A DNA stretch of 64,000 bases from a virus (lineage: Duplodnaviria; Caudoviricetes). Numbering within the stretch: the first letter of the stretch is position 1; each line of letters begins with the position of its first letter. Position numbers and translations under genes: made by a program. Positions 21,076-23,756 of this stretch are shown piece by piece. The notes below the pieces were generated by a model. It was given only the letters and a program-made list of their open reading frames with translations. It was not told where the DNA came from and ran no database searches. The DNA is taken from IMG/VR virus record IMGVR_UViG_3300007754_000852; one strand, given 5' to 3'.

Positions 21076-21594
21076 TTAAAATCCCATCTGTTTAACAGTT
21101 TCATATAATAGTATATTTGCGACCTGTGATGTGTTTAAACAGTATCCAACACCGGGCATGGGAATGTGAATAATGTCACTATTTCTTAGAATCTCTGCTG
21201 GGACTCCGGTCTCCTCATTGCCAACCACCAGACACACTCGACATGTAAAGTCAAATCTATAAGAGCCAATTGGTCTTGATCCCTCGCAGATTTCTGCTGA
21301 TACGAGTTTGATCCTTTCACCCTCAGCCCAATCTAAAAAATCGCGAGGTGATGAGTGTTGTTTGATATCTACAAAGTCACATAGACTTCCAGACAAAGGG
21401 TTTAACATCTTTCGTTTCGGAACTGATCCGATTACATGCACTCGCTCTGCTCCAAAACATGCTGCAGCCCTTATTAGATACCCAAGATTTCCATCATGCA
21501 TAAAATTAATACAACAAAGACTAACGGGGTATGACTTAGCATTTTTCAATTTTAGGCTATATCTCTCTCTTCTAGTATTGCTTCGCGTATTCAC
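21076..21594 (-). CDS. SpoU/TrmH-family RNA 2'-O-methyltransferase (SPOUT)
   Basis: GNLGYLIRAAACFG, LVVGNEETGV, HIPMPG..CLNTSQ. Confidence 0.92.
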   Translation of the reverse strand: MNTRSNTRRERYSLKLKNAKSYPVSLCCINFMHDGNLGYLIRAAACFGAERVHVIGSVPKRKMLNPLSGSLCDFVDIKQHSSPRDFLDWAEGERIKLVSAEICEGSRPIGSYRFDFTCRVCLVVGNEETGVPAEILRNSDIIHIPMPGVGYCLNTSQVANILLYETVKQMGF

Positions 21595-22105: not shown

Positions 22106-22193
22106 TGGCAGTGAGGGTGGGATTCGAACCCACGGTGCCTTACAACACTCAGGTTTTCAAGACCTGCGCCTTAAGCCTCTCGGCCACCTCACT
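22106..22193 (-). tRNA. tRNA-Ser(UGA)
   Basis: AGTGAGG/CCTCACT acceptor, G73-CCA, CAGGT-CTTGAAA-ACCTG anticodon arm, long V-arm, TTCGAAT T-loop. Confidence 0.95.
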
Positions 22194-22198
22194 AGTTG

Positions 22199-22265
22199 TG
22201 GAGCCTCCGGTCAGATTCGAACTGAGAACTGGCCGCGGAGATTCTAACCACTGAATTAAGTGCCC
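22199..22265 (-). pseudogene. Chimeric anticodon-less tRNA remnant
   Basis: 5' GGGCACT plus intact D-arm, only 14 nt to the T-arm (canonical about 23), 3' acceptor CGGAGGC-T-CCA does not pair with GGGCACT. Confidence 0.75.
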
Positions 22266-22271
22266 TGAGAA

Positions 22272-22358
22272 TGGAGCTCAGAGTGGGATTCAAACCCACG
22301 ACGTACTTTCGTATCAGGATTACAAAACCTGTTCCTTCGATCACTCGGACATCTGAGC
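22272..22358 (-). tRNA. tRNA-Thr(UGU) with non-canonical long variable arm
   Basis: GCTCAGA/TCTGAGC acceptor, U73-CCA, anticodon loop TTTGTAA, V-arm TAC-GAAA-GTA, T-loop TTTGAAT. Confidence 0.75.
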
Positions 22359-23105
22359 ATTAAAATTTTTATACTTACTATAGCCTCTCCTGAAGCAATG
22401 TTCATCATAAAATTCTGGCATCAATCGTCTCAATCGCCTGCCTGTAACTTGAGAAACTTCGCCAAAACGTTCGCTAAGCTTTTCTACCCACCCAAACTTT
22501 GAAAAATCAATTTCTCCAGATTCGTGTAAATCTTTTACTTTCTCTACGAACTTCTTATTAAACTCTTCTTTCAATTCTTTCAAGGTCGATCTTTCTTTCT
22601 GATATTTTTCAAAATCCTTGTTTCCTTTTCGAATTCTAGCTGACGTTTTCTTGTTGCTTTTCCTGCCCCAGTTTCGAAAATTTGAAGTTAGTGCATGACA
22701 ATTTGGACACAAAACCCTGAGATTATCTTTTGAATTATTCTTATGATTTCCATCAATGTGATCGATCTCTAGTATTGAACTTCCACACTTTCTCGTTTTA
22801 TCAAACCCACACTCTGAACATTTGAAATTTACTTCTTGGATCAAAATATTTCTTTTAATGGCCCATCCCACTTCGTTCCATGATCTTTTGCAGAATCGAT
22901 TATGAGCTGCTCGCGCCCTGTGTGTATCAAACTGTCTACTACACTCATCACATTTATGATTTCCTAGCGCGTTTAAATCTCTACGCCTTTGTATTTTTCG
23001 ATTTTTTGATCCTTCTCCATTACAAGCTACTATATGCTTACTAATATTATTAGCACTAAAATAGTCATTGCACAACTCGCAGTGTTTCATTTTGTTTGCT
23101 GACAT
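22341..23105 (-). mobile_element. HNH endonuclease (putative homing endonuclease) with zinc-finger motifs, inside the tRNA cluster
   Basis: CSECG...LEIDHIDGNHKNNSKDNLRVLCPNCHA; CELC and CDEC fingers; 3' end overlaps tRNA-Thr. Confidence 0.92.
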
Positions 23106-23155: not shown

Positions 23156-23182
23156 TGCAATAGGCCACTATGCGACGGAGGC
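23156..23182 (-). pseudogene. Orphan 5' half of a tRNA (probably Thr)
   Basis: GCCTCCG-TC-GCAT-AGTGGCCTA-TTGC-A; acceptor strand is 7/7 complementary to CGGAGGC in the 3' half at 22199-22232. Confidence 0.75.
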
Positions 23183-23671: not shown

Positions 23672-23756
23672 TGGTAGGCACGGTAGGACTCGAACCTACA
23701 TGCACCAATTACCCTAGTTTTATGCACGGTATATAAGACCGCTGGGATACGTGCCC
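23672..23756 (-). ncRNA. D-armless tRNA-like RNA with UAU anticodon loop
   Basis: GGGCACG/CGTGCCT acceptor, A73-CCA, perfect T-arm, GCGGT-CTTATAT-ACCGT arm, only 5 nt in place of the D-arm, 26-nt extra arm. Confidence 0.75.

Follow-up and report, generated by a model that had tools for sequence, protein, structure and literature searches.

Long variable arms in bacterial tRNAs are, by textbook rule, limited to those for Ser, Leu, Tyr and Sec. The stretch of 64,000 nucleotides analysed here (the window), which is part of an uncultured marine giant phage, encodes a tRNA that combines the threonine anticodon UGU with a long-armed, class II body and in which the elbow pair G19:C56 is replaced by A19:U56. 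This locus raises the question of whether such a gene can encode a working threonine tRNA and, if so, what its body and its elbow pair signify.

The tRNA-Thr(UGU) gene and its phage setting

ARAGORN calls the gene as tRNA-Thr(tgt), and it scores 51.3 bits against the Rfam tRNA family RF00005 (gathering score 29; E = 6e-9). It reads GCUCAGA-UG-UCC-G-AGUGAUCGA-A-GGA-A-CAGGU-UUUGUAA-UCCUG-A-UACGAAAGUA-CGUC-GUGGG-UUUGAAU-CCCAC-UCUGAGC-U-CCA. All seven pairs of the acceptor stem (GCUCAGA/UCUGAGC) are Watson-Crick pairs, G1:C72 and C2:G71 included, and the discriminator U73 (22275) is followed by a CCA encoded in the DNA (22274-22272). The elongator-tRNA bases U8, A14, G18, U33, G53-U54-U55, A58 and C61 are all present; only G19 and C56 are changed, and these jointly, G18 at 22342 being followed by A19 in the D loop AGUGAUCGA (AGUGA). 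The variable region of 15 nt (>10 nt) forms a stem-loop and the D stem has 3 pairs only (10-12 with 23-25), with G13·A22 unpaired and an enlarged D loop, which together define a class II molecule. MFE folding yields a modest gain over shuffled sequences (z = -1.8). The pair U31·U39 is flagged as a non-pair in the Rfam alignment, and RNAfold predicts a 4-bp anticodon stem closing a 9-nt loop; this mismatch weakens the anticodon stem and counts against a working tRNA. 'Superwobble' on a 4-bp anticodon stem was considered in support of U31·U39 and set aside, as the relevant study deals mostly with the top pair and C34 (PMC13092985).

We infer that the gene is expressed; a promoter scan identified two sigma-70-like sequences upstream, TTGAGA-18-TATGAT (10/12) and TGAACA-16-TATAGT (9/12), both of which are consensus matches only. 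Judged by its sequence and conservation, the tRNA-Thr(UGU) gene is real and conserved, far beyond chance, and very probably functional. ARAGORN, Rfam and the sequence itself bear out the preliminary description of the gene as a tRNA of class II shape whose anticodon and acceptor end are of the Thr type; each of the motifs it had named (a TAC-GAAA-GTA variable arm, D-loop AGTGA, T-loop TTTGAAT, C2:G71 and U73) is found. The U31·U39 mismatch, the 3-bp D stem, the encoded CCA, the overlap with an HNH endonuclease ORF and the adjoining tRNA fragments are additions to that description (Table 1).

Table 1. Features of the tRNA locus, with window positions, strand and the evidence for each.
Feature	Position	Strand	Evidence
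tRNA(UGU), 87 nt, intact, class II architecture, encoded CCA	22272..22358	-	ARAGORN, Rfam, family alignment
A19, D loop, partner of U56; also third base of the TGA stop of the HNH ORF	22341..22341	-	sequence
Anticodon UGU (positions 34-36), reads ACA	22322..22324	-	ARAGORN (gene position 35), sequence
U56, T loop UUUGAAU	22292..22292	-	sequence
Variable region, 15 nt: A44, 3-bp hairpin UAC-GAAA-GUA (22313-22304), unpaired CGUC	22300..22314	-	sequence
Anticodon arm CAGGU-UUUGUAA-UCCUG, U31·U39 mismatch (22327/22319), four pairs left	22315..22331	-	Rfam alignment, RNAfold
Two sigma-70-like promoter matches upstream of the tRNA, within the end of the HNH ORF	22377..22433	-	promoter scan
Canonical tRNA-Ser(UGA): G2:C71, G73, G19:C56, 16-nt variable arm; internal comparison	22106..22193	-	ARAGORN, Rfam 61 bits
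HNH endonuclease ORF, 254 aa; its final 18 nt are shared with the 5' end of the tRNA gene	22341..23105	-	ORF list, PHROG, Pfam
Orphan 5' half of a second Thr-type tRNA: GCCUCCG-UC-GCAU-AGUGGCCUA-UUGC-A	23156..23182	-	sequence
tRNA debris: 5' fragment (22265-22240) and 3' half (22226-22199)	22199..22265	-	sequence

The window encodes RtcB, GroEL, DnaK, a DnaE-type polymerase, a sigma factor, a helicase, a SPOUT methylase and an RNA-ligase-like domain. A megablast search of the window against phages and E. coli gave no match, and no cultured phage has a DnaE more than 31% identical to that of the window. Metagenome contigs of the same phage number at least 24 and reach 205 kb in length, and the tRNA-Thr(UGU) sequence is unchanged in all examined contigs of this population. 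In a relative with 66% identity in SpoU and helicase, the Thr/Ser cluster is absent at that place and the region is rearranged. The first 10,000 nt of the window, which include RtcB (1749-2966), have a G+C content of ~50% versus ~39% in the rest, and ATC makes up 64% of Ile codons there versus 18% further on.

Five tRNAs were found in the window: Thr-UGU, Ser-UGA, Ile-UAU-like, Leu-UAA and Asn-GUU. The first four correspond to favoured A-ending codons, namely ACA (59% of Thr codons in the window ORFs), TCA (35% of Ser), ATA (40% of Ile) and TTA (19% of Leu), and Asn-GUU pairs exactly with AAC (30% of Asn codons). The Ile(UAU)-like tRNA (23676-23756, minus strand; Rfam 34 bits, the alignment being locally gapped at the D arm) is without a normal D arm, UA-UCCC-A being followed directly by the anticodon arm; it has a 26-nt variable region, possible pairing of UCCC with the GGG of this region, and a length ~11 nt below that of a 91-nt homologue (L020). 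Close to the tRNA cluster, positions 21076-21594 (minus strand) encode a SPOUT (SpoU) 2'-O-methyltransferase, which best matches TrmH (Gm18, beside position 19) and then TrmL, both far under the family cut-offs. Such an enzyme may give the phage a means of modifying its tRNAs at the elbow or the wobble base.

A long-armed tRNA(UGU) family and its elbow pair

Pattern scans of IMG/VR, JGI metagenomes and GTDB genomes, together with BLAST searches against cultured phages, yielded 20 distinct long-armed tRNA(UGU) genes, mostly on phage contigs, all of which align end to end. Over 23 tested pairs including 19:56, standard pairs fill 98% of the cells of this alignment, compared with 70% in shuffles and 33-47% when partners were slid, and 18/23 pairs show compensatory change on both sides. 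Each of the three hairpin pairs of the variable arm (variable regions of 12-18 nt) has undergone compensatory change across the family, the three D-stem pairs are paired throughout (100%) and the four remaining anticodon-stem pairs covary. Invariant features are G1:C72 and C2:G71 (each 20/20), C11:G24, U8, the anticodon loop, G53 and the T-loop frame. The scan patterns required U31 and U39, so that the frequency of the mismatch within the family cannot be read from them; the members found by BLAST have A31:U39 (phage 5) and U31:A39 (LR756511). By this pattern of substitutions, the set is a functional RNA family under purifying selection and not a collection of chance variable-loop hairpins, and its family-wide compensatory changes argue that the window gene itself is neither a decaying copy nor a chance hairpin. 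Pattern hits in bacterial and archaeal genomes numbered 106; only 2 of these were long-armed tRNA(UGU) genes, one of which lies in a cluster of 19 tRNAs.

The same design is annotated as tRNA-Thr in many cultured T5-like phages, and the window gene is not unique: the 87-nt tRNA-Thr occurs in 113 phage records, mostly T5-like (Tequintavirus, including Salmonella phage 5, Bas33/HildyBeyeler, fp01 and SP01). The window gene is a further member of this family, from an unrelated marine giant phage. It shares with the T5-like gene its length, class II body, UGU anticodon, G1:C72, C2:G71, 15-nt variable region with 3-bp hairpin, 3-bp D stem and CCA, whereas the T5-like gene has G19:C56, A31:U39 and A73; identity outside invariant positions is ~65-70%. 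T5's own tRNA-Thr was ruled out as a relative in shape, as it is a 75-nt class I tRNA and the long-armed form occurs in other T5-like phages. Coliphage Bas33 (HildyBeyeler) encodes its tRNA-Thr(UGU) in the 87-nt gene bas33_0122 and additionally an 86-nt long-armed tRNA-Asn. Although annotated in cultured phages, the long-armed tRNA-Thr(UGU) family has apparently not been discussed in print; our literature searches found no paper describing long-armed Thr, Asn or Lys phage tRNAs. A conserved phage lineage with a class II body under a Thr anticodon, in which the Thr marks of the acceptor end are kept, means that the divide between class I and class II is not tied to amino-acid identity. Furthermore, its presence in cultured T5-like coliphages such as Bas33 makes ThrRS tolerance, PARIS blocking and the role at the ribosome testable in E. 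coli.

Long-armed bodies also occur on other class I anticodons in phage contigs, including Pro(UGG), Gly(UCC), Val(UAC), Lys(UUU), Lys(CUU) and Asn(GUU) (L006 10380-10472, 13034-13119 and 13126-13211; L027 10855-10941; L034 5289-5375; L001 9147-9233; L203 777-862), the Bas33 tRNA-Asn being one of them. Long-armed tRNAs for Ala, Arg, Asp, Cys, Gln, His, Phe and Trp were not seen in the same phage sample. The reverse case is found in 9/20 phage tRNA-Leu genes of the fetched loci, which have a 5-nt variable loop and are type I tRNA-Leu.

The paired change at the elbow had been put forward as a sign of selection rather than decay, to be checked by covariation at 19/56 across homologues. In scans that permitted C or U at position 56 and left the D loop unconstrained, A19 is present in 8/8 tRNA(UGU) genes with U56 (six long-armed, two short; D loop GA, no GG) and G19 in 18/18 with C56 (D loop GG). 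The corresponding columns of the family alignment hold GC in 13 rows and AU in 6, with 1 row misaligned, and an A19-conditioned scan of IMG/VR returned only members that were already known. With columns 19 and 56 left out, the nearest relative of 4/6 long-armed U56 genes is a C56 gene; this scattering of U56 genes among C56 relatives implies that the switch recurred independently. The covariation check was thus passed and the case for selection holds, the change being truly covariant, recurrent and two-sided.

The swap is not, however, peculiar to the window gene, nor is it a family-specific feature, which was ruled out by the other tRNAs of the same loci (n=242): U56 occurs in 10 of these, 8 of which (~3%) have A19, and A56 occurs in 3, apparently with U19. 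T5 tRNA-Ile(GAU) is also among the A19:U56 tRNAs. Such variants share with the window gene the D loop GA and the compensating T loop UUUNAAU, whereas in the window the pair sits in a class II-shaped Thr tRNA. AT pressure was rejected as the cause, as the G+C content of the loci averages 0.41 for both the U56 and the C56 group. In three phage contigs with an A19:U56 tRNA (the window, L004 and L006), the neighbouring tRNAs keep G19:C56. As far as comparisons of sequences can tell, A19:U56 is a genuine, recurrent covariation, yet a common and unspecific one, and behaves as an isosteric alternative, the pair being selected for its geometry. In mechanistic terms, A19:U56 is an isosteric Watson-Crick swap for G19:C56 that has arisen repeatedly and would keep the contact between D loop and T loop. 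Nothing in this analysis links the swap to any defence. The repeated and always compensated switch is a clear-cut natural case of selection acting on the elbow pair as such and not on the bases that form it.

Amino-acid identity and decoding

Bacterial ThrRS recognizes G1:C72, C2:G71, G35 and U36, and U73 is no Thr determinant in bacteria (PMC9976931). The complete ThrRS identity set is present in the window gene. The preliminary description had assigned Thr identity to both C2:G71 and U73; the assignment stands for C2:G71, an identity pair kept by all 20 members, but fails for U73 (PMC9976931), in place of which the family has either U73 or A73. Among long-armed Thr(UGU) genes, pair 2:71 is C:G in 19/19, position 73 is U in 12, A in 7 and never G, and the variable region has 12-18 nt. 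Short-armed phage tRNA-Thr genes have C:G at 2:71 in 13/14 cases, A or U at position 73 and a variable region of 4-5 nt. In tRNA-Ser genes of the same loci, pair 2:71 is G:C in 22/22, G73 is present in 17/22 and the variable region has 16-24 nt.

The window tRNA resembles the class II tRNAs for Ser, Leu and Tyr in the length of its variable arm, in a D stem of 3 bp with a non-Watson-Crick 13·22 and in its enlarged D loop. It differs from them by C2:G71 and U73, compared with G2:C71 and G73 in tRNA-Ser and A73 in tRNA-Leu and tRNA-Tyr, and its variable region is, at 15 nt, shorter than the 16-24 nt of co-resident tRNA-Ser, a comparison of length in which the sequence gives no arm orientation. 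With class I tRNA-Thr(UGU) (E. coli thrU; the 75-nt tRNAT of T5) it shares the anticodon, the acceptor identity pairs and the presumed decoding job, whereas these tRNAs have a variable loop of 4-5 nt and a 4-bp D stem. Among other tRNAs, the nearest matches to its D arm are mostly tRNA-Ser or other long-armed tRNAs. A class II-like D arm together with a Thr-type acceptor indicates that the molecule is, on sequence criteria, a class II body with Thr marks, and not a Thr tRNA with a stray insertion.

The reading that we favour, with a probability of roughly 70%, is a working phage tRNA-Thr(UGU) that is charged with Thr by the host ThrRS and decodes ACA, the dominant Thr codon of the phage. The host enzyme would charge the tRNA through G1:C72, C2:G71, G35 and U36, and the charged tRNA would supply decoding of ACA. 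Its class II body (3-bp D stem, large D loop, 15-nt arm) would represent the inherited design of the long-armed phage tRNA-Thr(UGU) family. In the window DnaK, 25 codons are ACA. The alignment columns concerned hold, on average, 76% Thr and 4% Ser in 117 homologues; Thr reaches 80% or more for 16 of these codons, and no ACA codon falls on a column where Ser is conserved.

A dual or switched identity, in which the tRNA would be a substrate of SerRS (or, in its A73 relatives, of LeuRS or TyrRS) and ACA would be partly misread, deliberately or with tolerance, is in our estimate improbable. It draws on the D arm of Ser/class II type with its invariant C11:G24, and on bacterial SerRS, which reads mainly the class II shape, relying on the variable arm and tertiary structure, and ignores the anticodon (PMC9976931); some serylation of tRNA-Thr(UGU) is accordingly conceivable. 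Against this, the window gene lacks the SerRS identity elements G2:C71 and G73: the family has C2:G71 where all 22 co-resident tRNA-Ser genes have G2:C71, never has G73, and has an arm of 12-18 nt where theirs measures 16-24 nt. LeuRS and TyrRS need A73, whereas the window gene has U73. In addition, ACA is the main Thr codon and is used at conserved Thr positions of the phage DnaK, where misreading would harm the phage.

Amber suppression in the T5-like phages also bears on charging. The 2004 record of Salmonella phage 5 (AJ604531) annotates its 'tRNAT' as a reader of ACA whose CUA derivative is an effective amber suppressor, from which it follows that the phage-5 scaffold is processed, charged and used by ribosomes. 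The 75-nt class I tRNA-Thr of T5, which is syntenic with the long-armed gene of phage 5, is annotated as not convertible to an amber suppressor. The two genes to be compared are the long-armed, convertible one in AJ604531 (L200, 1501-1587) and the class I, non-convertible one in T5 (L202, 1668-1742). This contrast hints that the class II body allows charging without the Thr anticodon, and it can be cited for a dual identity. Many amber suppressors, however, are charged by GlnRS or LysRS, and the suppressor annotation consequently does not single out SerRS.

Possible nuclease evasion and the split tRNA locus

[quoted passage not shown] Bas33 escapes PARIS with added T5 tRNA-Lys alone, whereas T7 needs both Lys and Thr (10.1101/2025.02.04.636281), and AriB has been modelled as reading the anticodon stem and D-loop U16-U17 (10.1101/2025.02.04.636281). 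The window gene represents the same isoacceptor as a prime AriB target and keeps the U36-A-A-U-C motif, but has C41 instead of the E. coli A41 at the cleavage site U36-A-A-U-C/A41, and its D loop, unlike that of class I tRNAs, offers no U16-U17 context. The characterised AriB-escaping variants of T5 are class I tRNAs with point substitutions, unlike the long-armed design. In the 12-kb tRNA region of Bas33, Thr(UGU) and Asn(GUU), both AriB targets, are the only long-armed tRNAs outside Ser, Leu and Tyr. The Bas33 tRNA-Thr keeps the U36-A-A-U-C-A41 site and, as Bas33 needs only tRNA-Lys, the body and not the cleavage site would be the protective feature; the long-armed Bas33 tRNA-Thr would then be a working decoder that is spared by AriB. 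Long arms are also found on Gly(UCC), Ile(UAU), Val, Glu, Pro and Met tRNAs of the same sample, which are no known AriB targets, and this counts against a PARIS-specific account. A literature search found no mention of the variable arm in the PARIS papers.

That the class II body (arm plus remodelled D loop) serves as an anti-defence feature, giving an ACA decoder that ThrRS can charge and that is a poor substrate for nucleases like PARIS AriB, is a tentative proposal which we regard as rather doubtful. Nuclease evasion, offered earlier as one example of what might select for the paired changes, is a possibility that would suit the long arm and the D-loop architecture more than the 19:56 pair. 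Were the proposal true, such a tRNA would have as its companion an HNH homing endonuclease that took the place of a Thr-type tRNA gene already resident there, and the A19/U56 change could even reflect immunity of tRNA-gene DNA to endonucleases that target conserved tRNA-gene motifs.

Evasion is distinct from a decoy or shield, an RNA with no decoding role that would soak up or block tRNA-targeting nucleases or toxins, which we likewise consider unlikely. RtcB and the RNA-ligase-like domain in the window suggest that damage to tRNAs and its repair play a part, the AriB preprint raised the idea that overexpressed viral tRNAs act as competitive inhibitors (10.1101/2025.02.04.636281), and the AriB motif U36-A-A-U-C is retained. 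The Thr pairs, 7-bp acceptor stem, CCA and T-loop consensus held across 20 members nevertheless correspond to the needs of an aminoacylated tRNA in use on the ribosome and exceed those of a decoy, the phage-5 homologue works in suppression, and the anticodon fits the preferred codon of the phage.

The intact gene lies between the two halves of another Thr-type tRNA gene. The orphan 5' half, directly upstream of the HNH gene, has a class II-type D arm that resembles those of the long-armed Thr genes L018 and L006. The 3' half in the debris consists of the T arm, with a C49·C65 mismatch, followed by CGGAGGC-U-CCA (22209-22199). The acceptor strands of the two halves are complementary at 7/7 positions (5' half versus 22203-22209), and the split gene bears the Thr-type features G1:C72, C2:G71 and U73. 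Fused to its 3' half is the 5' fragment of a different tRNA, GGGCACU-UA-AUUC-AGUGGUUA-GAAU-C, the acceptor start of which matches the Ile(UAU)-like gene at 23756; this arrangement suggests tRNA gene recombination. The debris as a whole gave no ARAGORN call and no Rfam match at E <= 1, and folds no better than shuffled sequence; its 3' part matches tRNA 3' halves. The ~950 nt between the split halves contain a promoter-like site, the HNH ORF (best PHROG HNH family match E = 1.4e-17; Pfam HNH), the intact tRNA-Thr and the foreign tRNA 5' fragment.

The simplest interpretation of this layout, reasonable if unproven, is that a long-armed Thr gene was resident here and lost its middle to an HNH cassette that carried, or lay beside, the intact tRNA-Thr, and it suggests that the intact gene is the only tRNA-Thr(UGU) of the phage at this locus. 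Searches revealed no intact copy of the split Thr-type gene in IMG/VR, no HNH-less alleles in the window phage population and no relatives of the window HNH. That the intact gene is itself a decaying or inactive copy in this scrambled locus, its odd features being tolerated damage, is highly improbable: it does sit among tRNA fragments with an overlapping HNH ORF, has a U·U at the bottom anticodon-stem pair and a z of only -1.8, and the rearranged locus may allow recent inactivation elsewhere, for example in the promoter, but its long arm, A19:U56, U31·U39 and U73 are common to homologues on unrelated contigs with many compensatory substitutions, no stem mismatch other than 31·39 is present and the sequence is the same throughout the examined contigs of the population.

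An HNH gene and an intact tRNA inside a split tRNA gene provide a possible example of endonuclease-driven tRNA gene turnover in giant phages. A similar HNH-over-tRNA layout is present in T5, where hegC and hegD overlap tRNA genes and tRNA-Gln2 is a pseudogene. In the window, the TGA stop codon of the HNH ORF (22341-22343, minus strand) coincides with tRNA bases U16-G18-A19, and with a canonical G19 the ORF would extend by seven codons to a TAA in the anticodon loop.
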